Origin: Chthonomonadaceae bacterium
GTDB taxonomy: Bacteria; Armatimonadota; Chthonomonadetes; Chthonomonadales; Chthonomonadaceae
Length of the DNA: 31,151 nt
Direction of reading: 5' to 3'
Assembly: GCA_014377395.1 (NCBI GenBank)
Contig: JACMPS010000391.1
Coordinates: 1 to 31,151 of the forward strand
Numbering within the stretch: position 1 is the first letter of the stretch; each line of letters opens with the position of its first letter. The position numbers and the translations under genes are program-made. Positions 8,871 to 20,910 of this stretch are shown here, piece by piece. The notes beneath the pieces were generated by a model. It did no database searches and was not told the DNA's origin. It was given only the letters and a program-made list of their open reading frames with translations.

Positions 8871-8997
8871 TGAGGCGTCTCAATCACAACAGGCGACGCC
8901 CCTACAGTGGACTGAGTGCAGGAATTCTTCCCTTGTTTGTTGAAAAACAATCGTGAAACGCCTCTACTTTCCGCCCCGTAGTCATACCGAACACGCC

Positions 8998-11796
8998 ATG
9001 CTAAACAAAATTCGCCTTGCAACGCTTTCGATACAGGAAAAATACCGAACCGCCACCCGACAACAGAGGCGGCTGTGGCTTGTAACGGCGATCTTTGCGG
9101 CGATGATCCTCTATCGTACCCCCGCACTCAACAAAATGGGGCTTGTGGTTTGGGTAATGGCGAATGGAATTTTTGCTCTTGTGGCAACAATTTGGGGTGC
9201 GTTTCATCCCCGGTGCGTAATCAAGGGCTGGCAAACAGCCACCAAATGGGCTATCGTGGGGGCTTTCGCAACCACGCTGGGCTTGCTTTCCGCCTTCGAT
9301 ACGCTGGTTTCGCAGAACGCGCCCATTCCTTACAGCCTGTTTTTAGTCGGGGTGCTGGTTTTGTTTCCGTTTCTGTGCGGGCTGTTCGCGCTTATCTCCC
9401 TGAGTGGTGCCGCTCTGGGAGCCTATGCGTATCGCCGCCGCCCGGAACTGATCGAAGAAGCCACGCGGTACGGGGTTTCCGTTCATTGGCTTTTGATTGC
9501 AATCACTCTGCCGTTGCTTTTTTTAGTGCATGGTTGGCTTAAACGGCACTTCGGAGAGGCGGTGTCAAGTCGATTTTTCAGCCCTAATTCTCTCACGCCG
9601 CTTTCGTTTCTGGCGGGGGGATTTGCGGTTTTTTCGCTGTTGCTGATCGCCCTCGTTCTCAAGGTGCAAAACGTTCCCTATCCCCTCAGCAAACGGCTTA
9701 GTCGTCGGTGGTCGCGCACCCTTGTCCGCAAGATTACGTTTCGTGGGAAGACGTATTCGGTCAGCCTTCGCGGGGGTTTGCTCGGTGGAATCGCGGCTTT
9801 GTTCATCCTCTCTGCGAGTATGGCGCACCTGCTCGAACCCCTGCAAACAGGCGTACTAACTTCCATGATGAAACTGGCGGACACTTTGCCCCTGAACCGA
9901 AAGACCGGGGCACTCGACGCAAGTTCGCCGAATCCCCCTGCGCCCAACCAACTGCGTTTTGTTGGCGGCGGTAAGGTTCGAAGTACACTTGACGCGAGTT
10001 CGCCGAATTCTCCGGCACCGCTCGTCATTCTGGAAATGGATCGGAGTTTGCGCCGCGAATCTCTGTATCGTCGCGACGAATGTGAGATACAGGGGCGCAT
10101 TATTCGAGAACTGGTCAAGTACGGGGCAAAGCGGATCGTGCTTCCCTTGCCCACGCTTGATATCAAAAACCTGCGTGCAAACGAAAATCGCTTTGAGGCA
10201 ATTCAGTACAAAGAAGCCACCCAACGAGCGAACACCGCACAAAAAGTGGATGCACTCTGCGCCACAATCCGCAAAGCAGGCAATGTGATTGTGGCAATCG
10301 TTCCCAACCGAACACAGCAGGGAACCTCCAAAAGCCTTCATAAATTGACGGCAAACGAGCAAAAGATCGCAGAGGCGGCAAAATCGGTCGTCTCGCTCAC
10401 GCAGGAAACGTTTGGAGCCACCCGCTTGCCCTGCCTGCAAATTGGGCGTAGAGAAGCACTGAATGCCGCCCCCCGTCTTTTTGCGGCACTGACCGATAGT
10501 CCCGATGAGGAACAATCCCTCCCTCTTGAAGACCGTGCCATAATCGCAGGAGCTTCATTCCCGATTGCGGTACAGGGGCGGGTGATCGTGGACTTCGGGG
10601 CAATGGATCTGGAGAAAGACATTCTCCACTTGAGTTACAGTGATATTCAGCACGGCGAAGACCTTTTGCGTCAGGTAGGGGATAAAAAGGAGGGCAAAAA
10701 GGGTGCGGAGTGGGAAACCACCGGGCTTGCGTGTCGGGGAAAGATTGTGTTTCTTGATGCGTTGGTGCGTGATTCACAGGAAACGTTCATGGGCAGAATC
10801 TCCAGTATCGAGGTGATTGCTCACACGACGGAAGCCCTCTACTCGAAGCGCGTCATTGAGCGTTTTTCTCCGGTTCTACTGTTCTTTCTGACGTTGGTAC
10901 TGTGCGTGGTGGGCGGACATTTCACCTACCGCAACAATCCATTCGATGCGGCATGGCGGCTGGCGGCTCCCCTTCTCCCGATTGTCGCCTCCAGTTTTAT
11001 CACGCTTTTGGTGAAAGAGGTGTGGTTCGATCCGGTTCCGCTAATTCTCGGTCTGCTTTTGACTTATGTGTTTGTGGTGCAATCGGGCTACAGTGTAGAG
11101 CGGGATGAGCGGGAACGTAATCGCGCCCTGCTGAAGCGGTTTGTGTCTCCACAGGTGATCGAGAAGTATCTGGACGAGCCGGAGTTGTTGGGACTTGGTG
11201 GGGTGAAGCAACAGGTTTGCGTGATTTTTGTGGATGTGCGGAACTTCACGGGCTTTGCCGAGTCGCGTGATCCGCAGGAAGTCATTTCCGCAATCAACGA
11301 ATATATGGGCGGTCTCACCGTTGCGCTTCGCGCCGGAAACGGGATTCTGGACAAGTATACCGGAGACGGGCTAATGGCGTTTTTCCCGATCAACAGTGAG
11401 GGTCTCACGGCAACCATTCCTCACGCCCTCGGAACCGCAATTGAAATGCAACGCGAAGCCCTCCGTATTTCGGTACGCCGTGCGCGGGAGGGCAAGGCAA
11501 TTTTGCATTTGGGAATCGGGGTGCATTATGGAGAGGCAGTTACGGGGCTAGTCGGAAGTGATGAGCAGTTGAGTTATACGGCAATGGGGCTGACGGTGGT
11601 GGTGAGTGCGCGACTGCAAAGTCTGGCGGGAGGAGGGGAAGTCGTGATGAGCGAAAGTGTCCATGCGGCGGCGGGCGATGCTATTCCCGGCGATGCCACC
11701 ATTCAACTCGGCGAACCGATCAAGGTAAAAGGGGTGACGGAACTGATTGCGCCTTATCGTTTGAGTTTCAATCCGGTGGAACCCTCTGTCGGTTAG
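8998..11796 (+). CDS. Membrane-bound class III adenylate/guanylate cyclase with CHASE2-like sensor domain
   Basis: 'VIFVDVRNFT', 'LDKYTGDGLMAFF', 'GIGVHYGEAVTG', 'ARLQSLAGGGEVVMSE'. CHASE2-like 'SYSDI...GKIVFL...EVIAH' followed by 3 TMs. Start is ATG 8998 or GTG 8953. Confidence 0.88.
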   Translation: MLNKIRLATLSIQEKYRTATRQQRRLWLVTAIFAAMILYRTPALNKMGLVVWVMANGIFALVATIWGAFHPRCVIKGWQTATKWAIVGAFATTLGLLSAFDTLVSQNAPIPYSLFLVGVLVLFPFLCGLFALISLSGAALGAYAYRRRPELIEEATRYGVSVHWLLIAITLPLLFLVHGWLKRHFGEAVSSRFFSPNSLTPLSFLAGGFAVFSLLLIALVLKVQNVPYPLSKRLSRRWSRTLVRKITFRGKTYSVSLRGGLLGGIAALFILSASMAHLLEPLQTGVLTSMMKLADTLPLNRKTGALDASSPNPPAPNQLRFVGGGKVRSTLDASSPNSPAPLVILEMDRSLRRESLYRRDECEIQGRIIRELVKYGAKRIVLPLPTLDIKNLRANENRFEAIQYKEATQRANTAQKVDALCATIRKAGNVIVAIVPNRTQQGTSKSLHKLTANEQKIAEAAKSVVSLTQETFGATRLPCLQIGRREALNAAPRLFAALTDSPDEEQSLPLEDRAIIAGASFPIAVQGRVIVDFGAMDLEKDILHLSYSDIQHGEDLLRQVGDKKEGKKGAEWETTGLACRGKIVFLDALVRDSQETFMGRISSIEVIAHTTEALYSKRVIERFSPVLLFFLTLVLCVVGGHFTYRNNPFDAAWRLAAPLLPIVASSFITLLVKEVWFDPVPLILGLLLTYVFVVQSGYSVERDERERNRALLKRFVSPQVIEKYLDEPELLGLGGVKQQVCVIFVDVRNFTGFAESRDPQEVISAINEYMGGLTVALRAGNGILDKYTGDGLMAFFPINSEGLTATIPHALGTAIEMQREALRISVRRAREGKAILHLGIGVHYGEAVTGLVGSDEQLSYTAMGLTVVVSARLQSLAGGGEVVMSESVHAAAGDAIPGDATIQLGEPIKVKGVTELIAPYRLSFNPVEPSVG

Positions 11797-11847
11797 GGGG
11801 AAACTGGGGAATAAATTTGTGGGCGATAAGGGCGCGAAATGAGTTTA

Positions 11848-11970
11848 CCGGGGAATAAATTCCCCGGCTACACACGAGCGAAGTCCACCTCCGTGGACTG
11901 AGAGGGAAGTTTGCATTGAGTCCACGAAGGTGGACTCCGCGTCTTGAGAGCCGGAGGTTTTAACCTCCGG
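11848..11970. repeat. Inverted REP doublet, family B (REPIN-like)
   Basis: Reverse unit at 11848-11899, 19-nt spacer, forward unit at 11919-11970 with variant second hairpin ccggaggttttaacctccgg. Confidence 0.8.
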
Positions 11971-12023
11971 ACAACCTCCAATCCGGGACGCCAGACAACA
12001 AATTCTCCAACGAAAGAGACCCT

Positions 12024-12596
12024 ATGACTCACATTCCCCCGACAGAAGAGAAGGTTTTTATGACCTCGGCAAAGTGGCGGCAAGAGCGTCCTCATATTCT
12101 GGTTGTCGCCTGTTCCGATGGGCGGTATCAGGAAGCCCTCGACGAGTTTCTACTCAATCATCTGGGCATTGAAGATTATGATCGTCTTTATGCGCCTGGT
12201 GGACCCGGTGCGCTTGTTTCTTCGGCGATCTCCCACTTTCGAGGCGTCCAATTTCAGGATGAAGCAAAATTCTTGCTTGACGCGCATGGGTTGGAGCGCG
12301 TTATTCTGATTGTACATGGGCCCGTTGAGGGAAGCAGACCTTCCGAAGCCCGTTGTGCCGACTACCTGCGGAAGATGCCGGGGAACAGCGTCGGCGAGAT
12401 GCGGCTTCGTCAGGCGGAAGACCTGAGCCGGGTCGCCACACTAATGAAAAGCCATAAGCCTACCGTCAGCCTACAGATTTTCGCGGCGGAGGTGCGTGAG
12501 GACAGACGGGTTCAGTTTGTGCCCGTGCCTGTTCTCTCGGATTATACGTTTCCGTTGTGGGGAAGTGCCGACTTTTTCTCCGGTTTGGATCGCTAG
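12024..12596 (+). CDS. Beta-carbonic-anhydrase-like protein
   Basis: CxDxR motif 'ACSDGRY', 'PGG', then 'VILIVH-x12-CADY'. Start is 12024 or 12060. Confidence 0.6.
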   Translation: MTHIPPTEEKVFMTSAKWRQERPHILVVACSDGRYQEALDEFLLNHLGIEDYDRLYAPGGPGALVSSAISHFRGVQFQDEAKFLLDAHGLERVILIVHGPVEGSRPSEARCADYLRKMPGNSVGEMRLRQAEDLSRVATLMKSHKPTVSLQIFAAEVREDRRVQFVPVPVLSDYTFPLWGSADFFSGLDR

Positions 12597-12628: not shown

Positions 12629-12657
12629 TTGACAAATTGCGATTACGGGAGTAAACT
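12629..12657 (+). promoter_or_regulatory. Sigma70 promoter for the DUF2294-kdp locus
   Basis: TTGACA (12629-12634), 17 nt, TAAACT (12652-12657). Confidence 0.75.
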
Positions 12658-12743
12658 GTCCCTGCAATCAAACAGTGTGGCGACGGTCACAATCTGGAAG
12701 ATGAGCGTAAGGGTCAGCCCGAAACTGTCCAGTGCGCGACTAG

Positions 12744-12810
12744 TCCAGCGTTCACAGAGAGTTCCGCGAGGCGGAAGTGTTTCTGTTGAGACGCTGGATT
12801 TTTTCTTTTC
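12744..12810 (+). terminator. Terminator-like hairpin in leader 1
   Basis: tccagcgt / acgctgga outer stem with inner acagaga/tttctgt and ttccgc/gcggaa stems, followed by ttttttctttt directly before ATG 12814. Confidence 0.65.
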
Positions 12811-12813
12811 ATT

Positions 12814-13242
12814 ATGGAAACAAAGTCCGCAACTCGAATTACGAAAGGCACGATGGAAGCGGAAATTGCCGCCGCCACCGTTCGCACACAGCGCGAACAG
12901 ATCGGACGCGGAGCCACCGATGTACGTGCTTATATCGTCGGGGAAATGGCAATTGTGCGCTGTACCGGCATTCTTACCCCCGCCGAGGCGCACCTTATCG
13001 CTACAGAAGAGGGTTGCAAACTCGTGCAACAATCGCGCACGGAACTGCGCCGTATCATTTGTACCGAAATGGAAACGATGATTGCAGGAATTGTCGGATG
13101 TCGCGTGTTGCGCTCTTATGGAGACGTGAACGCAGAAGCCGGAGAGCTCGTCGAGGTTTACATTTTAGAAACCGATCTTGAAAAGCGGTTGCTCAGGCAG
13201 GACTTAAACCGTCTTAACGGTCTGATGCCTAACATCAAATAA
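12814..13242 (+). CDS. DUF2294 (MpsC-like) domain protein
   Basis: 'TKGTMEAEIA...IGRGATDVRAYIV...GILTPAE...EEG...SRTEL...GCRVLRSYGDV...GELVEVYIL' fits the family pattern. Confidence 0.85.
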   Translation: METKSATRITKGTMEAEIAAATVRTQREQIGRGATDVRAYIVGEMAIVRCTGILTPAEAHLIATEEGCKLVQQSRTELRRIICTEMETMIAGIVGCRVLRSYGDVNAEAGELVEVYILETDLEKRLLRQDLNRLNGLMPNIK

Positions 13243-13303
13243 AAAACTTGGTTGCCGAACACGAGGCATGACCTCCCAAACTGGGAGGCATGAAGCGCAA
13301 TGG

Positions 13304-13377
13304 AGACCGAAAATGCACGGAAAAGTGACTCTACCTTGAGTGACCGAACCCGTCATTTTCGGTCTTTTTTTGTTTTT
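13304..13377 (+). terminator. Intrinsic terminator in leader 2, upstream of the kdp micropeptides
   Basis: 12-bp stem agaccgaaaatg (13304-13315) / cattttcggtct (13354-13365), then tttttttgttttt. Confidence 0.75.
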
Positions 13378-13390
13378 GGAGAAGACAGAA

Positions 13391-13492
13391 ATGGATGCAC
13401 TGATTGGAATTGCTCTTTACATTATTTTACTTGTATTCTATTTCATTCCGGGATACTTCGTTAAGCGTTCCCACAAATCCACAAAGAGGTAA
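13391..13492 (+). CDS. Small membrane peptide (33 aa), MDALIGIALYIILLVFYFIPGYFVKRSHKSTKR
   Basis: GGAG SD at 13378-13381, one hydrophobic helix and a basic tail. Not in the ORF track because it is too short. Confidence 0.55.
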   Translation: MDALIGIALYIILLVFYFIPGYFVKRSHKSTKR

Positions 13493-13495
13493 CTT

Positions 13496-13579
13496 ATGAT
13501 CGACGTACTTTATGTGATCGTCGCCGTTCTCTCGTTTGCCGTTTGCGCCGCCTATGTGCGCGGTTGCGACAAACTTTAA
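13496..13579 (+). CDS. Kdp-associated small membrane peptide (27 aa), MIDVLYVIVAVLSFAVCAAYVRGCDKL
   Basis: AGAGG SD. TM helix ending 'YVRGCDKL', a type of peptide I recognise from upstream of kdpF in other kdp operons. Confidence 0.7.
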   Translation: MIDVLYVIVAVLSFAVCAAYVRGCDKL

Positions 13580-13597
13580 CCCTACAGGAGAACCCCC

Positions 13598-13684
13598 ATG
13601 TTCGAGATGATTCTTGCTATCGCTGTCGCCGTCGGGTTGCTCGTCTACCTGCTCTACGCGATGCTCAAACCGGAGAAGTTCTAA
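13598..13684 (+). CDS. kdpF: K+-transporting ATPase subunit F
   Basis: MFEMILAIAVAVGLLVYLLYAMLKPEKF has the classic 'YL.YA...PEKF' ending. AGGAG SD. Confidence 0.92.
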   Translation: MFEMILAIAVAVGLLVYLLYAMLKPEKF

Positions 13685-13687
13685 CCC

Positions 13688-15541
13688 ATGACAACCAACG
13701 GGCTACTACAAATCGCGCTCTTCTTTATCGTGCTGGTCTTGCTAACAAAGCCGATGGGCGCGTATATGAAAAAAGTTTTCGAGGGAGAAAAGCACACGCT
13801 CTCCTCTCCTCTTGGCTGGCTAGAGCGGATCATCTACCGCGTCTGCGGCATAGATCCCGCTCAGGAGATGCGCTGGACAACCTACGCCTTTGCCCTTCTC
13901 GCATTCAGCGTGGTAGGGATGGTCTTTTCGTATGTCGCGTTACGCGCGCAAAGCCTGTTGCCCTTCAATCCGCAGGGCTTTGGCACAAAGGAAATGGCTC
14001 CCGATCTTGCCTTCAACACCGCCGCTTCCTTTACGACAAATACGAACTGGCAGTCCTATGTCCCGGAAACCACGATGTCGTATTTCTCGCAAATGGTGGC
14101 GTTGGCAATCCATAACTGGATGAGTGCCGCTTCAGGAGCCGCTGTCGCCATTGCCGTTGTGCGTGGCTTCTCACGGCGCGAAGTCAACTCACTCGGCAAC
14201 TTCTGGGCGGACGTTGTGCGCGTCACACTTTATGTTCTCGCGCCGATTTGCCTTGTTTACACACTGTTTCTCGTGGCTTCAGGCGTACCACAGAACTTCT
14301 CGCCCTACGTGAAGGCAACCACGCTGGAGGGAGTGGCACAAACCATTGCAATGGGGCCCGTCGCTTCACAAGAGGCGATCAAAAATCTCGGAACGAACGG
14401 CGGCGGTTTCTTCAATGCAAACGCCGCGCATCCCTTCGAGAACCCGACTCCGCTTGTCAACTTCATTCAGATGTTGTCCATCTTTTTGATCCCGGCGGGC
14501 TTGACCTATACGTTCGGGAAAATGGTAGGTAATGCAAAACAAGGATGGGCAATCTTTGCGGCAATGTCAATCATGTTCTTCGCAGGGGTCGGGGTAGCAT
14601 ACAAATACGAGGCGGCAGGAACTCCTGGACTCGTCAAAGCCGGGGTACAAACCGCCGCCACCGAAACTCAGTCGGGCGGCAACATGGAGGGCAAAGAAAC
14701 CCGTTTCGGGATAGCCAACTCCGCGCTGTTCGCCACCGTCACGACAGATGCTTCTTGCGGAGCCGTCAATGCGATGCACGACTCGTTCACGCCTTTGGGT
14801 GGCCTCGTTCCGCTAATCAATATCATGGCGGGCGAAGTGATCTTTGGAGGTGTGGGGGCGGGACTTTACGGAATTTTGATGTTCGCCGTGATCGCCGTCT
14901 TTATCGCCGGACTTATGGTGGGGAGAACGCCGGAATATCTCGGTAAGAAAATCGAGCAATTCGAGGTGAAAATGGCGATCCTCGCTGTCCTTGTCCTTGA
15001 TGCTTCCATCTTAGGATTCACGATGTTAGGCACTAACCTGAGTTTACCACCCGGTGCCACTTCGCAGACTTTCACAGAGGCACAGGCGGCGGACGAGGCG
15101 AAACTGCCTCCCCTCGCAAAATGGAACCATGTCAACAGCTCTTCACCGAGCAACTACTATGGTGCCACCTATAATAATGTCAACAATAGCGGTGCACACG
15201 GCTTCAGCGAAATTCTCTACGCTTACACGTCGGCGACGGGAAACAACGGCTCCGCCTTCGCCGGAATCACGGCGAACACACCCTACTATAATGTGACCTT
15301 AGGGCTTGCAATGATCATCGGGCGATTCCTGATGATCGTGCCACTGCTCGCAATGGCAGGGAAGCTCGCACAGAAAAAGTTCGTTCCCGCCTCATCGGGA
15401 ACCTTCCCGACGGACAGCGGAACCTTTGTTGTTCTTCTGATCGGAACCGTGATTCTCGTGGGTGCGCTGACCTATTTCCCGGCACTCGCTCTGGGACCCA
15501 TCGTGGAACACTTCCAGATGAACGCGGGGAAGGTGTTTTAA
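13688..15541 (+). CDS. kdpA: K+-transporting ATPase subunit A
   Basis: 'SFTTNTNWQSY', 'LGTNGGGFFNAN', 'SCGAVNAMHDS', 'GNNGSAFAG'. Confidence 0.98.
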   Translation: MTTNGLLQIALFFIVLVLLTKPMGAYMKKVFEGEKHTLSSPLGWLERIIYRVCGIDPAQEMRWTTYAFALLAFSVVGMVFSYVALRAQSLLPFNPQGFGTKEMAPDLAFNTAASFTTNTNWQSYVPETTMSYFSQMVALAIHNWMSAASGAAVAIAVVRGFSRREVNSLGNFWADVVRVTLYVLAPICLVYTLFLVASGVPQNFSPYVKATTLEGVAQTIAMGPVASQEAIKNLGTNGGGFFNANAAHPFENPTPLVNFIQMLSIFLIPAGLTYTFGKMVGNAKQGWAIFAAMSIMFFAGVGVAYKYEAAGTPGLVKAGVQTAATETQSGGNMEGKETRFGIANSALFATVTTDASCGAVNAMHDSFTPLGGLVPLINIMAGEVIFGGVGAGLYGILMFAVIAVFIAGLMVGRTPEYLGKKIEQFEVKMAILAVLVLDASILGFTMLGTNLSLPPGATSQTFTEAQAADEAKLPPLAKWNHVNSSSPSNYYGATYNNVNNSGAHGFSEILYAYTSATGNNGSAFAGITANTPYYNVTLGLAMIIGRFLMIVPLLAMAGKLAQKKFVPASSGTFPTDSGTFVVLLIGTVILVGALTYFPALALGPIVEHFQMNAGKVF

Positions 15542-15552
15542 CCTATACGTTA

Positions 15553-15731
15553 CGCAGGAATGAATTCCGCGCTGGGAGGCTAAAGCCCCGTGTCCTTCGG
15601 ACACCAAAAACGCAGAGAAATGGACAGACGCAGAGCAAAATCCAGACGATAATTCCTGCCGGAAGACGCTATGAAGAGAATAAACAGGCAGTTGTGTCCG
15701 AAGGACACGGGGCGCGGAATTCATTCCTGCG
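15553..15731. repeat. Inverted REP doublet, family A (REPIN-like)
   Basis: Forward copy at 15553-15604 and reverse copy at 15694-15731, flanking an 89-nt spacer. Confidence 0.85.
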
Positions 15732-16064
15732 GTCACTGAAAATGCGGTAATGGCTTCGACAACGGCGGTTGCGGCAGCAATGGCAACAAACTTCCAGGGC
15801 AAATCAGGATAGTCAGGTGCGCTCTGCGGCGGTGAAGTTCCCTCGCAAAACGTTATCAAACACGGCGAAAACTACCTTCCTTCGCACTTGCGGGGCGTCA
15901 CTCTTCACAAAAGGGACATCCCCCCGCACAAAAGAGAACCCTTTCAGGGAGGAAATGTATCCTTCTCTCCGGTGGAAGTCACCAAACTTCCTGTGCGGGG
16001 AACAATCGCGCACCGAAACGATACCGAATCTTCGCGTATCTTCTTATAAATCACAGGCAAAGAG

Positions 16065-18173
16065 ATGTCATTAACACTCAATCAACCCACACAAACGAGC
16101 GATAACAACGCTCCACAGTCACCGAAAAAACAATCAAAGCCGCTTCTCGATCCGGCGATTGTCAAACGCGCCATCAAGGAGTCGTTTATCAAACTCGACC
16201 CGCGAGTCGTGGCAAAAAACCCGGTTATGTTCGTCGTTCTTGTCGGCTCGGTGATGACGACTTACTACTTTATCAAGGCACTGATCGGGCATGAGGGCAA
16301 CGCGCTCTTTGTCGGGCAGGTCTCAATCTGGCTCTGGTTCACCGTTATTTTCGCCAATTTCGCAGAAGCAATGGCGGAAGGACGCGGCAAGGCGCAAGCC
16401 GACTCGCTCCGCAAGGCGAAAACGCAAACCGTCGCCCGGAAACTCGTCAACGGGAAAGAGCAACAGGTTCCCGCGCCTGACTTACGCAAAGGCGACCTCG
16501 TGGTTTGCGAAGTCGGCGACGTAATCCCAAGCGACGGCGAAATCATCGAAGGAATCGCCAGCGTGGACGAATCGGCGATTACCGGGGAGTCAGCACCCGT
16601 CATTCGTGAGAGCGGCGGAGACCGAAGTTCTGTCACAGGCGGCACGAAAGTTCTCTCGGATCGAATCGTGATCCAGATTGCGACCAATCCCGGCGAAAGT
16701 TTTATTGATCGCATGATCGCACTCGTCGAGGGCGCACAACGCCAGAAGACGCCCAACGAAATCGCGCTTTCGATCTTGCTTTCCGGGCTGACGCTTATCT
16801 TTCTGCTTGCCGTTGTGACGCTCTATCCATATGCAGTTTATTCCGTTCGCGCCGCCGGATCGGGCGCACCGCCGAGCATTACGGCATTGATCGCACTTAT
16901 GGTGTGCCTCATTCCTACGACGATTGGCGGACTGCTTTCGGCGATTGGCATTGCGGGCATGGACAGGGTCATGCAACACAATGTTCTCGCCATGTCGGGC
17001 AAAGCGGTAGAGGCGGCGGGTGATGTCAATACCCTTCTCCTCGACAAAACAGGAACGATCACGCTTGGCAACCGACAAGCGACGGAATTTCGCCCGCTTC
17101 CCGGCGTCAATATCGAAGAACTCGCCAATGCCGCGCAACTGTCTTCCCTCTCCGACGAGACCCCGGAAGGGCGTAGCATTGTCATTCTCGCGAAAGAGAA
17201 ATATGGTTTGCGAGGGCGCGAACTCACCGAAGCCGATGCGGAGTTCGTGCCGTTCACTGCACAAACTCGTATGAGCGGCGTCAATGTGGACGGGGTGCAG
17301 GTGCGAAAAGGCGCGGGTGACAATGTAAAACGGTGGGTGGAAGAGCAGGGCGGGCGTATCCCTGCCGAACTCGACCCGATTGTGGAGAGCATTGCAAAAG
17401 TCGGGGGAACTCCGCTTGTCGTCGCGCTCAACAATCAGGTACTCGGCGTCATCTATCTCAAAGACGTCGTAAAAGGCGGGATGCGAGAGCGTTTCGACCA
17501 ACTGCGGGCAATGGGAATCAAGACCGTAATGATTACCGGAGACAACCCTCTCACGGCAAAATCCATTGCGGAAGAGGCGGGCGTAGACGATTTTCTGGCA
17601 CAGGCGACGCCGGAAAACAAAATGGATTTGATTAAAAAGGAGCAGGCGGGCGGGAAACTTGTCGCGATGACCGGAGACGGGACAAATGACGCCCCGGCAC
17701 TCGCGCAAGCGGATGTGGGCGTGGCAATGAACACGGGAACCCAAGCCGCAAAAGAAGCAGGGAACATGATTGACCTCGACTCCAACCCTACCAAGTTGAT
17801 CGAAGTCGTCGAAATTGGCAAGCAACTCCTGATGACTCGCGGAGCGTTGACTACGTTCAGCATCGCTAACGACGTTGCCAAATACTTTGCGATTATCCCT
17901 GCTATGTTCGTCGTCACCTACCCGGAGTTGAACAAACTCAACCTTATGGGCTTGACGAACTCGAACTCAGCGATCCTTGCGGCGGTCATTTTCAATGCCC
18001 TTGTGATCATTGCCTTGATCCCGCTGGCACTGAGAGGGGTCGCGTATCGCCCGATGAATGCCGGGGCGATCCTGCGCCGCAACCTGCTCATCTACGGACT
18101 GGGTGGCGTGCTGATCCCGTTTCCCGCGATCTGGCTCTTAGATAGAATTCTGGTGACGTTGCATCTGGCGTAA
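16065..18173 (+). CDS. kdpB: K+-transporting P-type ATPase subunit B
   Basis: 'TGES', '[11 protein letters not shown]', 'DKTGT', '[18 protein letters not shown]'. Confidence 0.99.
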
Positions 18174-18263
18174 GAGTATTGAGTGTCAAATATTAAGTGT
18201 TGAGAATGAACGAGTGAGTGTTGCAATGAGCGAAGTGGCTTAACACTTGACACTCAACACTTA
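18174..18263. repeat. Inverted heptamer array (YRAGTGT-like) between kdpB and kdpC
   Basis: Left arm gagtattgagtgtcaaatattaagtgttgag. Right arm ttaacacttgacactcaacacttaa. Confidence 0.65.
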
Positions 18264-18284
18264 ATCCTTTGAGGAGATTTTAGA

Positions 18285-18902
18285 ATGTTAAGAGAATTGA
18301 AACCTGCGATTTTGTTAGTTCTGGTGTTTGTTGTCCTCACGGGGATTGCGTTTCCGCTCGTGATGACAGGCGTGTCGAAAGCCATCTTTCCGTCACAAGC
18401 AAACGGTAGTCTGATCGAAAAAGACGGCAAGGTGATCGGCTCTTCGCTGATCGGACAGAATTTCGCCGACCCGAAGTATTTTCACCCGCGCCCCTCCAGT
18501 GCGGGAAGCGGCTATGATGCGGCAAACTCAAGCGGAACGAATTTAGGACCGACTTCCGGTAAACTCATTGACGGAATTCATAAGAAAACTGCCGACGGAA
18601 AAGACGACCCCGGCAACTTCGACGGTCTTGTTGATCTTGCCGCCGCGTATCGTAAGGAAAACGGCTTAGCCGAAAACACGCCCGTTCCCGCCGATGCCGT
18701 CACGCGCTCAGGCTCCGGTCTCGACCCGGAAATCTCTCCTGCCAACGCAGAATTGCAGGTGGCGCGTGTGGCAAAAGCACGAAGCCTAAGCGTAGACGCC
18801 GTGAAGAAACTCGTCACTGAGAACACGGCGGGACGTACCCTGGGCGTTCTCGGCGAACCCCGCGTGAACGTGCTGAAACTTAATCTGGCTCTGGACAAGT
18901 AA
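18285..18902 (+). CDS. kdpC: K+-transporting ATPase subunit C
   Basis: 'FPSQANGSL', 'YFHPRPS', 'DAVTRSGSGLDPEIS', 'EPRVNVLKLNLALD'. Confidence 0.98.
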   Translation: MLRELKPAILLVLVFVVLTGIAFPLVMTGVSKAIFPSQANGSLIEKDGKVIGSSLIGQNFADPKYFHPRPSSAGSGYDAANSSGTNLGPTSGKLIDGIHKKTADGKDDPGNFDGLVDLAAAYRKENGLAENTPVPADAVTRSGSGLDPEISPANAELQVARVAKARSLSVDAVKKLVTENTAGRTLGVLGEPRVNVLKLNLALDK

Positions 18903-18995
18903 CCTAACCCCCCCCCGCCCCCTTCCCTGTGAGCGTAGCGAACGTATAAGGGCGGAAACCGAAGGTTTGATGGATGGAGGGGCGGGGGGTTAGGT
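18902..18995. repeat. C-run/G-run inverted repeat (family C) between kdpC and kdpD
   Basis: acctaa-c9-g-cccc ... ggggc-g6-ttaggt. Confidence 0.65.
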
Positions 18996-19010
18996 CAAAA
19001 GGGAGTTCCC

Positions 19011-20150
19011 ATGCCTGAAACAAATAAGCCGACGCCGGAAGAGTTGCTGGCGCGGGTCAACAAAGCCGAACGACGTGAGAACCGGGGAAGACTGAAAGTC
19101 TTTCTCGGTTTTGCGGCGGGTGTCGGTAAAACTTTCGAGATGCTGAATGAAGCGAGCCGCCGCAAACAACGCGGGCAGGATGTGGTGATTGGTTGGGTGG
19201 TGACGCACGGACGTAAAGGCACGGAGTCGCAACTCGGTGATCTGGAAGTCGTGCCACGCAAACAGGTGGAGTATCGCGGTACGGTTTTCGAGGAAATGGA
19301 CACCGAGGCGATCTTAGCGAGAAAGCCGATGTGGGTGATCGTAGACGAACTCGCGCACACGAATGTGCCGGGTTCCATTCGCGGAAAGCGGTGGCAGGAC
19401 ATCGAACTCTTGCTCGATGCAAAAATCAACGTTCTGACTACGATGAACGTTCAACACCTTGAAAGCCTCAACGATACGATTGCCGATATTACTGGGGTAC
19501 GTGTGCGAGAAACTGTCCCGGATCACATTCTTACCGAAGCCGAAGAGGTGAAAATGGTGGACATCACTGCCCGTGCCCTCATTCATCGCCTTGAGCGAGG
19601 CGACATTTACGCCGCCGACAAAGTGCCTTCCGCCCTTGAAAACTGGTTTCGGGAAGGCAACCTGAACGCTTTGCGCGAGATCGCCCTGCGGGAAATCGCA
19701 CAGGAGGTAGACAGTGACGTTTCGGAGTATCGCAAAGACAAACACATCACGGAAAATTGGGCGACGCACGACAGAATTCTCGTTTGTATCTCGCCGTCTC
19801 GCTCATCGCTTCGATTGCTGAGACGCGGCTGGCGAATTTCACAGCGACTGAAGGGCGAAATCGTGGCACTCTATGTGCAGGACAAACCCTGCACGGAAGC
19901 GCACAAAGCAATCCTGGAAAAAGATTTCGCAATGGCGTCGCAACTGCATATTCCGCTTGTCAAAGTCGAGGGGAACGTGGCGGATGAAATTATTCGGTAT
20001 GCACGAGAAAACCGCATCACGGAAATCGTCATCGGTCACTCAAAGCGCAGTTCTTTGCAGGAGTTTGTACGAGGCTCGATCATTAACGCTCTGACGAAAA
20101 ATTTGCGTGATGTGGATATTTTGCTCGTTGCGGGTGAAGAAGAGAATTGA
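19011..20150 (+). CDS. kdpD: KdpD N-terminal sensor + Usp domain only (no TM, no histidine kinase)
   Basis: 'GRLKVFLGFAAGVGKTFEML', 'VDELAHTN', 'NVQHLESLN', 'FREGNLNALRE', then a Usp domain and stop at 379 aa. Confidence 0.92.
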   Translation: MPETNKPTPEELLARVNKAERRENRGRLKVFLGFAAGVGKTFEMLNEASRRKQRGQDVVIGWVVTHGRKGTESQLGDLEVVPRKQVEYRGTVFEEMDTEAILARKPMWVIVDELAHTNVPGSIRGKRWQDIELLLDAKINVLTTMNVQHLESLNDTIADITGVRVRETVPDHILTEAEEVKMVDITARALIHRLERGDIYAADKVPSALENWFREGNLNALREIALREIAQEVDSDVSEYRKDKHITENWATHDRILVCISPSRSSLRLLRRGWRISQRLKGEIVALYVQDKPCTEAHKAILEKDFAMASQLHIPLVKVEGNVADEIIRYARENRITEIVIGHSKRSSLQEFVRGSIINALTKNLRDVDILLVAGEEEN

Positions 20151-20232
20151 TGTGTGTAAAATTTGATAGGATTGAATAAGATCGAAGTCGGAAAGAGAAA
20201 TTGCTCTCTTGTCCCTCGCAGAAAGCCCCGAC

Positions 20233-20910
20233 ATGAAATTGCGCTTTGTGGCTCCCCTCAGTTTTGTTTTGCTCTTTTCCCTGTCTTCGTGTCTCTCGGC
20301 GCAGGAAGTGGACTCGCAACTCTGGACACAATATCTCATCACCGGTAAATGGAAAAACGGCTTGCGAATTCTAGCCGAAGTACAACCGCGTTTCGGAAAG
20401 AATTATGGACGCACGTCCCGGTTTTTGTTGCGGGGTGCCGTCGGTTATCAAGTCAGCCCGGAGTTTTCGGTGTGGGTGGGTCACGCCTGGACACCGACGT
20501 TTACGCCTGAGTTCAATTCCGAGGACAGGTGGTATCAACTTTTGCTATGGGAAAGCCATTTTCCCGGCTTCGATCTCATCAACCGGTTGCGACTTGAGGA
20601 GCGTTCAATTTCAGGAGCGGGAGGTACGTCCTTTCGAGGCACCTACCGCCTTAGAGTTGAGAAGCCACTCGACAAAAAGAAGCGTCTATCGGGCATTCTC
20701 TACGATGAATTCTTGTGGAACCTGAACTCGACGCCACGCGGAGCCGTCATGGGCTTTGATCAAAACCGAACCTTTTTCGGACTTGGCTACAAACTTACGG
20801 GTCACACCAAAATGGAGGCAGGCTACCTTGTAAATTTCACCGATGTACCCAGCCCTCGACGAGACCAACGCGCCGACATTCTGTTCTTGTCCCTCAATTA
20901 TAACCTGTGA
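20233..20910 (+). CDS. DUF2490-like outer-membrane beta-barrel protein
   Basis: Signal peptide, 'E.QPRF', 'RLRLEER', 'YDEFLWNLN', 'FDQNRTFFGLGY', and C-terminal 'LSLNYNL'. Confidence 0.75.
   Translation: MKLRFVAPLSFVLLFSLSSCLSAQEVDSQLWTQYLITGKWKNGLRILAEVQPRFGKNYGRTSRFLLRGAVGYQVSPEFSVWVGHAWTPTFTPEFNSEDRWYQLLLWESHFPGFDLINRLRLEERSISGAGGTSFRGTYRLRVEKPLDKKKRLSGILYDEFLWNLNSTPRGAVMGFDQNRTFFGLGYKLTGHTKMEAGYLVNFTDVPSPRRDQRADILFLSLNYNL

Follow-up and report, generated by a model that had tools for sequence, protein, structure and literature searches.

A terminator-overlapping hairpin RNA family flanks DUF2294 genes and precedes kdp operons in Armatimonadota, suggesting protein-dependent control of potassium uptake

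Introduction

In the bgl operon of Escherichia coli, the model of BglG/SacY/LicT antitermination, a ribonucleic antiterminator (RAT) hairpin overlaps a terminator and the genes are arranged in the order t1-bglG-t2-bglFB. Here we describe a layout of this kind ahead of a potassium-uptake operon, kdpFABC, in a 31,151-nt stretch of DNA from a Chthonomonadaceae bacterium (Armatimonadota, order Chthonomonadales; contig JACMPS010000391.1 of assembly GCA_014377395.1), hereafter called the window. A gene of the DUF2294 (MpsC) family stands there between two leaders, each of which combines a hairpin with an overlapping intrinsic terminator; we call the hairpin before the gene m1 and the one after it m2. 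Both leaders are members of one RNA family that is conserved across Armatimonadota and has no counterpart in Rfam 15. Unless another contig is named, coordinates are those of the window, and the features given lie on its + strand. The window's genome, a metagenome-assembled genome (MAG), comprises 585 contigs totaling 4.26 Mb and is 87% complete.

The likeness to the BglG/SacY/LicT systems, whose bgl side we take from general knowledge, lies in a hairpin that is imperfect, has conserved internal loops and competes with an overlapping terminator, in a (here putative) regulator gene flanked by two hairpin/terminator sites, as suits positive autoregulation, and in further copies that would control other operons in trans. 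In contrast, the DUF2294 protein has neither a CAT nor a PRD domain, PF10057 being all that was found in it, and the RNA is about 58 nt long, twice the size of RAT, with another sequence and no link to the phosphotransferase system. PyrR and HutP of Bacillus subtilis offer a second comparison, as small soluble ligand-sensing proteins encoded by the first gene of the operon they control, with RNA sites before and after the regulator gene (pyr) or a terminator after it (hut). However, PyrR promotes termination, and its fold is not among the results of our structure searches with DUF2294. HutP binds UAG repeats as a hexamer, whereas the RNA described here is a hairpin with no UAG-repeat pattern, and the same searches returned no HutP fold.

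Among cation-responsive RNAs, the Na+ (DUF1646 motif) and Li+ (nhaA-I) riboswitches are likewise small ON switches that overlap terminators ahead of cation transporters and carry DUF-gene names. They differ from our leaders, which have no Rfam match and whose DUF is a small soluble protein encoded between two copies, not a membrane transporter. The general hallmarks of a riboswitch, a conserved covarying RNA and a competing expression platform, are both found here, and protein-free ligand binding is putative. In Bacillota, the cyclic di-AMP (c-di-AMP; ydaO/kimA) riboswitch controls kdpFABC, kimA and ktrAB (PMC6488665; PMC11018627). It resembles the present system in being a terminator switch before kdp and kimA in organisms where KdpE is lacking and KdpD is either short or missing; in contrast, the leaders here are predicted to turn genes ON and not OFF, form a simple hairpin and not the pseudo-twofold ydaO fold, do not match RF00379 and are linked to DUF2294.

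On the protein side, the two-component system KdpD/KdpE differs from this locus, where KdpD lacks its kinase half and no KdpE gene adjoins kdpD. A better match is the short KdpD of Deinococcus geothermalis, which has KdpD and Usp domains and Walker motifs and no KdpE, a diadenylate cyclase also being present in our genome. How kdp is transcribed in species with a short, serine-kinase KdpD and no KdpE was left open in that work (PMC11018627); here, a candidate answer lies directly upstream of kdp.

Both leaders belong to one covarying RNA family

Hairpin m1 occupies positions 12691-12748 and hairpin m2 positions 13245-13310. With the covariance model R1, described below, m1 scores 40.1 bits and m2, in a search of its own genome, 23.5 bits. 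The basal helix P1 pairs CTGG (12694-12697) with CCAG (12745-12748) in m1 and TTGG (13248-13251) with CCGA (13307-13310) in m2, which in the window is a diverged copy that aligns with the m2 copies of relatives. The consensus of m1 reads CTGGTTGAC, then GCAAGGGG, a loop, CCCGGTGC and then GTAGGCCAG; that of m2 reads CCGGTTGCC, then GAAGGG, a loop, CCAGTCG and then GGAGGCCGG.

The common fold is a rod-like hairpin. From the bottom up, P1 (CYGG/CCRG) is followed by two U.G pairs and one G.A pair, which make up a non-canonical UUG/AGG block, and by a step of 2 bp, A-U for m1 copies and C-G for m2 copies. Above it, a variable 4x4 internal loop, a 3-bp step and a tandem A.G/G.R mismatch lead to the upper helix and a variable tip. 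This hairpin is both simpler than and different from the base pairings that an earlier reading of the window (the original prediction) had drawn inside each leader. A short gaccgaa hairpin in leader 2, part of that earlier pairing, is not conserved; relatives show a long terminator instead.

The rod-like structure was tested on 46 aligned copies (alignment A1), in which 91% of cells pair, compensatory changes occur in 11 of the 15 pairs, and the covariation score reaches 0.539, shuffles giving 0.217 and slid partners no more than 0.138; as these copies were chosen by a pattern that rewards P1, the four P1 pairs are biased and the other eleven are not. R1 was built from A1 and gathered 84 copies from 54 loci of Armatimonadota (alignment A3). 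There, 91.6% of cells pair, 12 of the 15 pairs show compensatory changes, and the score of 0.539 compares with 0.204 in shuffles (none of 500 reaching 0.539) and at most 0.109 with slid partners, in an alignment fitted to the R1 model, which favors structure. A conserved and covarying RNA motif at the flanks of DUF2294 genes, which the original prediction had anticipated across genomes, was thus found.

A search of the window against Rfam 15 at the gathering score gave no match to the leaders. Under relaxed thresholds (E up to 10 for the leaders and up to 1 for the loci of six relatives), Rfam 15, including RF00379 (ydaO-yuaA), returned only chance-level rows. The family is thus new to Rfam 15 and, with its clear structure, presents a testable ON-switch design.

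Each hairpin shares an arm with a terminator

Terminator 1 extends over 12742-12804, with its stem at 12742-12800 and its T-run at 12799-12804, and ends 9 nt before the ATG of the DUF2294 gene (12814). Terminator 2 covers 13302-13371, with its stem at 13302-13367 and T-runs within 13365-13377. In both leaders, the 3' arm of the hairpin is the 5' arm of the terminator, that is, an expression platform competing with the conserved structure. The same holds for relatives, where both motifs run into a long GC-rich stem that is followed by a T-run and whose 5' arm is again the 3' arm of the motif.

Folding energies rank the two states. In leader 1, the hairpin alone reaches -20.4 kcal/mol versus -31.7 for the terminator alone; in leader 2, the values are -26.9 kcal/mol for the hairpin alone versus -32.3 for the overlapping terminator. 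Either leader folded as a whole adopts the terminator form as its lowest-energy structure. Medians in relatives follow the same trend (hairpin -25.7, terminator -32.4), with several of their terminators under-measured by the T-run rule applied. Judging from these thermodynamics, we infer that the default state of the leaders is stop; since the terminator is the more stable fold and shares the 3' arm of the hairpin, a factor that stabilizes the hairpin should turn transcription on.

The promoter expected at 12629 is present as a sigma-70-type site (TTGACA-17 nt-TAAACT, 12629-12657) with 10 of 12 matches, in a scan that finds promoter-like sites in the region no more often than in shuffles. Relatives carry a TTGACA/TGGTAnAnT promoter at the equivalent position before m1. 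The scan found no promoter-like site on the + strand between 12816 and 13688, nor, in particular, after terminator 2 up to kdpA. Hairpin 2 starts only 3 nt past the DUF2294 stop codon, and because no promoter lies between, transcription of kdp must cross the DUF2294 gene and both terminators. Every element of the locus named in the original prediction was found, at its given position or close to it, including two structured leaders ending in terminators, with DUF2294 between them, and a terminator 2 that ends 13 nt before the first small open reading frame (ORF), at 13391. Its proposal that kdp expression needs read-through of two serial terminators is likewise borne out.

Three metatranscriptome libraries from ice contain contigs matching 12698-12887, 12738-12921, 12907-13098 and 12998-13267, and none over the gene upstream of the 12629 promoter. 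The first two of these contigs span terminator 1; they show presence and not transcript ends, and may include DNA carry-over.

The family precedes potassium and sodium transport genes across the phylum

Sixty relatives were searched with the DUF2294 protein, and in most of them the gene lies directly 5' of kdpF or kdpA on the same strand. The order m1, DUF2294, m2 and effector genes is kept at about 26 of 30 loci of the order and recurs in other families of the phylum. R1 matches were obtained in 35 of 61 relatives and in 19 of 151 genomes sampled across the phylum. The two types differ in their settings. m1 was seen before DUF2294, before a copy of m2 (genome G045) or as an orphan, and nowhere else. 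m2 mostly precedes kdp; it also stands before a homologue of KimA (E 1.8e-100 to PDB 6S3K), a CPA1 Na+/H+ antiporter, a DUF1003 protein, a 4HB_MCP protein and a HAMP-PAS-HisKA kinase.

Several loci depart from the standard arrangement. In one genus, the kdp operon (L042; G045, contig C160) has m1 and m2 in tandem and lacks a DUF2294 gene between the two, and an m1-DUF2294-m2 cassette in the same genome (L029, contig C171 of G045) precedes the HAMP-PAS-HisKA sensor kinase, unlinked from kdp. At L048 (G022:C4:560600-563200), an extra m1 with terminator lies about 950 bp 5' of the regular m1; between the two is a gene pair (74 and 146 aa) that by size and order alone resembles an inserted toxin-antitoxin module. 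The m2 copy before the 4HB_MCP protein (G015:C2:4044474-4051670) is followed about 7 kb on, on the same strand, by a 705-aa ORF with DUF4118, so the RNA there may also control a KdpD-like kinase. The window's own genome holds a third copy, an orphan m1-type hairpin with terminator (C304:9371-9487; L034:1501-1617; 31.8 bits). Its strand carries no gene downstream, the next ORF being convergent, and this copy may be a relic or serve as a small decoy RNA.

A degenerate m2 pattern run over 185,579 species genomes returned 92 stretches, of which just five loci, from Chthonomonadales, are real. A 42-bit match in Mesorhizobium is due to chance, as it falls inside a 744-aa ORF and has no terminator.

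Hairpin copies co-occur with DUF2294

The DUF2294 gene of the window (12814-13242; 142 aa) matches PF10057 with E 9e-31 and 106.6 bits, the cut-off being 23. In the phylum sample, PF10057 occurs in 18 of the 19 RNA-positive genomes versus 18 of the 132 RNA-negative ones, an association that is partly automatic because RNA and gene are usually adjacent. The sole RNA-positive genome without DUF2294 (G007) carries a decayed orphan m1 with a P1 mismatch, orthologous to a copy in a member of its sister genus; its downstream DUF2294-kdp region is gone and no KdpD was found in it. Other incomplete cases are G046, where m1 is followed by a disrupted DUF2294 gene and the remaining hairpin copies are lost, G011 and G014, where contig ends cut the loci, and G039, a genome that is 64% complete. 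Wherever hairpins stand away from DUF2294 (G045, G008, G030, G015 and G037), the genome encodes DUF2294 elsewhere. Among the relatives and the 151-genome phylum sample, we found no intact hairpin-terminator copy in a genome devoid of DUF2294. As far as sequence distribution can tell, this pattern fits a trans-acting protein.

The AlphaFold (AF2) model of the protein (pLDDT 90.5, pTM 0.82) is built of two units, each a helix plus a beta-hairpin, and of a C-terminal helix. Residues conserved throughout the family cluster in three motifs, (F/L)xRExxGRGP, TPxE and RxELR. Comparison of a DUF2294 profile with PDB sequences yielded chance rows only, and the only reviewed proteins with the DUF2294 fold are YbcI (34% identity, TM 0.82/0.93) and YrhF of B. 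subtilis. A literature search found no paper on DUF2294 function; the Pfam name MpsC is taken from a Na+-translocating system. A very diverged DUF2294-like gene in genomes of family f29 (L088; G162:C1) has no GRGP motif and is directly followed by a small ORF, kdpF and kdpA.

DUF2294 genes also adjoin terminator-containing leaders outside this RNA family's core range. A Planctomycetota MAG encodes six DUF2294 paralogues, and R1 with filters off finds four leaders beside them (17-22 bits, E 6e-4 to 0.015 in 16.6 kb), values that are not significant at whole-genome scale; a whole-genome search of this MAG with the prefilter did not recover the four. All are full-length and in the same register, with a 3' arm that enters a terminator. 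The four stand ahead of unrelated stress genes; one of them precedes genes for a His-rich protein and a CsbD-like protein. At L187 (Planctomycetota MAG, G199:C23), a small ORF that looks CsrA-like by eye comes after a DUF2294 paralogue preceded by an R1-like leader. Within Armatimonadota, a gene of another DUF2294 subfamily (L083) stands before the promoter and terminator-containing leader of a phosphoenolpyruvate carboxykinase (PEPCK) gene; R1 does not match the leaders beside this other subfamily, near PEPCK and GAPDH. In B. subtilis, a 159-nt RNA was mapped between yrhG and yrhF (ncr2185; PMC2965217) and a 139-nt Hfq-associated RNA between yrhF and yrhE (PMC3574147, Table 2), a layout that parallels the present one in that short transcripts flank a DUF2294 gene. 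The family is thus found beside terminator leaders of unrelated genes in three phyla.

A short KdpD in place of the two-component system

The kdpD gene of the window (19011-20150; 379 aa) encodes the KdpD N-terminal domain and a Usp domain; Pfam finds no membrane (DUF4118), GAF or histidine-kinase part. This agrees with the original prediction that kdpFABC is followed by a KdpD devoid of transmembrane and kinase domains. DUF4118 was not found in the window's genome (G000) or in its relatives G001 and G004, which are 99% complete. The original prediction saw no kdpE in the window; on its contig (C171) there is likewise no OmpR-type regulator and no Trans_reg_C match, and the ORF after kdpD is a DUF2490 gene. 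At least six OmpR-type regulators are encoded on other contigs, and an unlinked KdpE-like regulator may be among them.

Across the phylum, a long KdpD (an open frame of at least 650 aa) is present in 11 genomes, ten of which have neither the RNA nor DUF2294. In the eleventh (G114), the RNA serves kimA and not kdp. Every genome with the RNA before kdp and a KdpD match has a short KdpD. Full-length KdpD and the RNA/DUF2294 pair are therefore almost mutually exclusive within the phylum, and the RNA/DUF2294 arrangement appears to replace the usual KdpD/KdpE control.

What, then, does the short KdpD do? Inactivation of KdpB is due to the N-terminal domain of KdpD, a serine kinase, and KdpD/Usp-only proteins are switched on by c-di-AMP (Silberberg et al., PMC11018627). 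In the window's protein, both Walker A (GFAAGVGKT) and Walker B (VIVDELAH) are retained, and a diadenylate cyclase is encoded in the genome. By analogy, it is probably better explained as a c-di-AMP-controlled serine kinase of KdpB. The suggestion that soluble KdpD takes part in RNA binding was not upheld, since the motifs, the cyclase and the published kinase role account for the protein, and it therefore needs no RNA-binding role.

A proposed mechanism and its alternatives

We propose that the kdp operon would be controlled by protein-dependent transcription attenuation from the 12629 promoter. The nascent leader RNA could fold into either the rod-like hairpin or the longer, more stable terminator built in part from the hairpin's 3' arm, and in an unaided leader the terminator would prevail. 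DUF2294 might sense low K+ status, either itself or by way of a metabolite like c-di-AMP, and by binding would stabilize the hairpin such that RNA polymerase reads through. Because an m1 copy precedes its own gene, the protein would amplify its own synthesis; m2 would then open kdpFABC and, at other loci, kimA, the Na+/H+ antiporter or the sensor kinase. Later, the short KdpD could shut the pump off as a c-di-AMP-dependent serine kinase.

Gene order, co-occurrence and the parallels in other phyla make us lean toward this role of DUF2294 as an autoregulated, signal-sensing RNA-binding antiterminator that reads the hairpins. In its favor are the placement of the gene between two potential target sites, the use of m1 as the DUF2294 leader (its other copies being that before m2 in G045 and the orphans), the finding of no intact switch in a genome without DUF2294, and the recurrence of the family at terminator leaders of unrelated genes in three phyla. 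Several observations weigh against it. The co-occurrence is, as said, in part trivial; the DUF2294 of G037 is devoid of three near-invariant residues, yet an m2-kdp leader is kept in that genome; and genomes of family f29 have a very diverged DUF2294-like gene immediately before kdp with neither hairpin nor terminator, which hints at a Kdp-linked role of DUF2294 independent of the hairpin RNA. The protein is not basic, and neither Foldseek against PDB (best E 0.037) nor VIA-align (best Z 6.4) gave a convincing structural relative. The model weakly resembles V4R/Bet3-type ligand-binding domains, which recur at Z ~5, and otherwise generic two-layer alpha/beta folds, and no HutP, PyrR, CAT or ANTAR fold was among the rows. 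As modeled, the fold would be neutral on RNA binding, speaking neither for nor against it. Lastly, the regulon (Kdp, KimA, the Na+/H+ antiporter and the Planctomycetota stress genes) also fits a single ion or stress riboswitch.

The last point leads to the alternative we take most seriously, possible and still rather unlikely in our view: the hairpin might itself be a riboswitch aptamer that turns transcription on by direct binding of a ligand or ion, with DUF2294 as its commonest cargo and perhaps a ligand-binding or Kdp accessory protein. Strong conservation and covariation together with an overlapping expression platform are what such an RNA would show, and KdpFABC, the KimA homologue, the CPA1 antiporter and the Planctomycetota stress genes form a coherent regulon for it. 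Blocks of U.G and G.A in tandem are typical of cation sites, and those conserved here look like metal-binding sites. There is also precedent in orphan motifs named after DUF genes, earlier examples of which proved to be ion riboswitches. A Na+ or other ionic or osmotic stress signal would fit the ON logic, and the f29 gene, linked to kdp with no hairpin RNA, speaks for this reading as well. An aptamer acting on its own is, however, hard to reconcile with the fact that no RNA-positive genome with intact copies is without DUF2294, and with a gene that is led by m1 and placed between two copies, a pattern typical of autoregulated RNA-binding proteins. Nor can one ligand explain why other DUF2294 subfamilies adjoin other leaders (PEPCK at L083; yrhF/yrhG in B. 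subtilis), and K+ or c-di-AMP as the direct ligand would have the wrong sign for uptake genes.

Two further explanations separate DUF2294 from the leaders, or the leaders from regulation. It seems improbable to us that another, unlinked factor, such as a general RNA-binding protein or an elongation factor, reads the hairpins and that DUF2294 acts only on the Kdp or KdpD proteins themselves. The f29 kdp operons, which keep a DUF2294-like gene with no RNA, and the weak resemblance of the fold to small-molecule-binding V4R/Bet3 domains and not to RNA binders would suit this idea, but DUF2294 cassettes also precede kinases and KimA, the cassette of G045 is unlinked from kdp, and attenuators accompany the family in phyla where Kdp plays no part. 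Very unlikely indeed is a KdpD/KdpE-type two-component system located elsewhere that drives kdp from an unrecognized promoter, the leaders being insulating terminators. The genome is 87% complete and its OmpR-type regulators (at least six) leave room for such a system; against this stand the lack of DUF4118 in G000, G001 and G004, the lack of a promoter-like site past terminator 2, the absence of the RNA from 10 of the 11 long-KdpD genomes, and the consideration that simple insulators would not keep a covarying antiterminator hairpin across a phylum.

If DUF2294 is indeed an antiterminator, it would be a protein-based counterpart of the c-di-AMP riboswitch as master switch of Kdp, KimA and Na+/H+ antiport. 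We go further in suggesting, with our judgment evenly divided, that DUF2294/MpsC might be a widespread, unrecognized family of ligand-sensing RNA-binding antiterminators in which each paralogue would read a hairpin competing with a terminator, and that one branch in Armatimonadota would have replaced KdpD/KdpE in the control of K+ uptake. This would give a testable function to a DUF found in many phyla, including YbcI and YrhF of B. subtilis as well as MpsC. B. subtilis yrhF, on both sides of which published RNA maps show unexplained short transcripts, lies in a host that suits a quick genetic test.

Other features of the locus

Between terminator 2 and kdp lie two small ORFs. The first (13391-13492; 33 aa) encodes a single hydrophobic helix and, according to tblastn in relatives, is unique to the window's genome, other small ORFs taking its place in relatives. 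The second (13496-13579) encodes a 27-aa membrane peptide with tblastn matches in more than 20 relatives, where it is kept just 5' of kdpF/kdpA with a tail resembling Y-x-R-x-C-(D/E)-K-(L/M); it matches no family in Pfam or NCBIfam. The operon continues with kdpF (13598-13684; PF09604, E 2.7e-11), kdpA (13688-15541; PF03814, E 5.5e-235), kdpB, the P-type ATPase subunit (16065-18173; E1-E2_ATPase and Hydrolase domains in Pfam), and kdpC (18285-18902; PF02669, E 6e-72). The DUF2490 gene (20209-20910; 233 aa), which by Pfam is not kdpE, follows kdpD at a distance of 58 bp on the same strand and may belong to the operon.

Directly upstream, the same strand at 8953-12596 encodes a class III nucleotidyl cyclase of 947 aa and a protein of 190 aa that weakly matches Pro_CA_2 (carbonic-anhydrase-like), neighbors that are not kept in relatives. 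Within the operon, the 520-bp gap between kdpA and kdpB contains a long inverted repeat (15551-15735), its arms GGAATGAATTCC and GTGTCCTTCGGACAC arranged in mirror order, which looks like an insertion of the REP/REPIN (repetitive extragenic palindrome) type.

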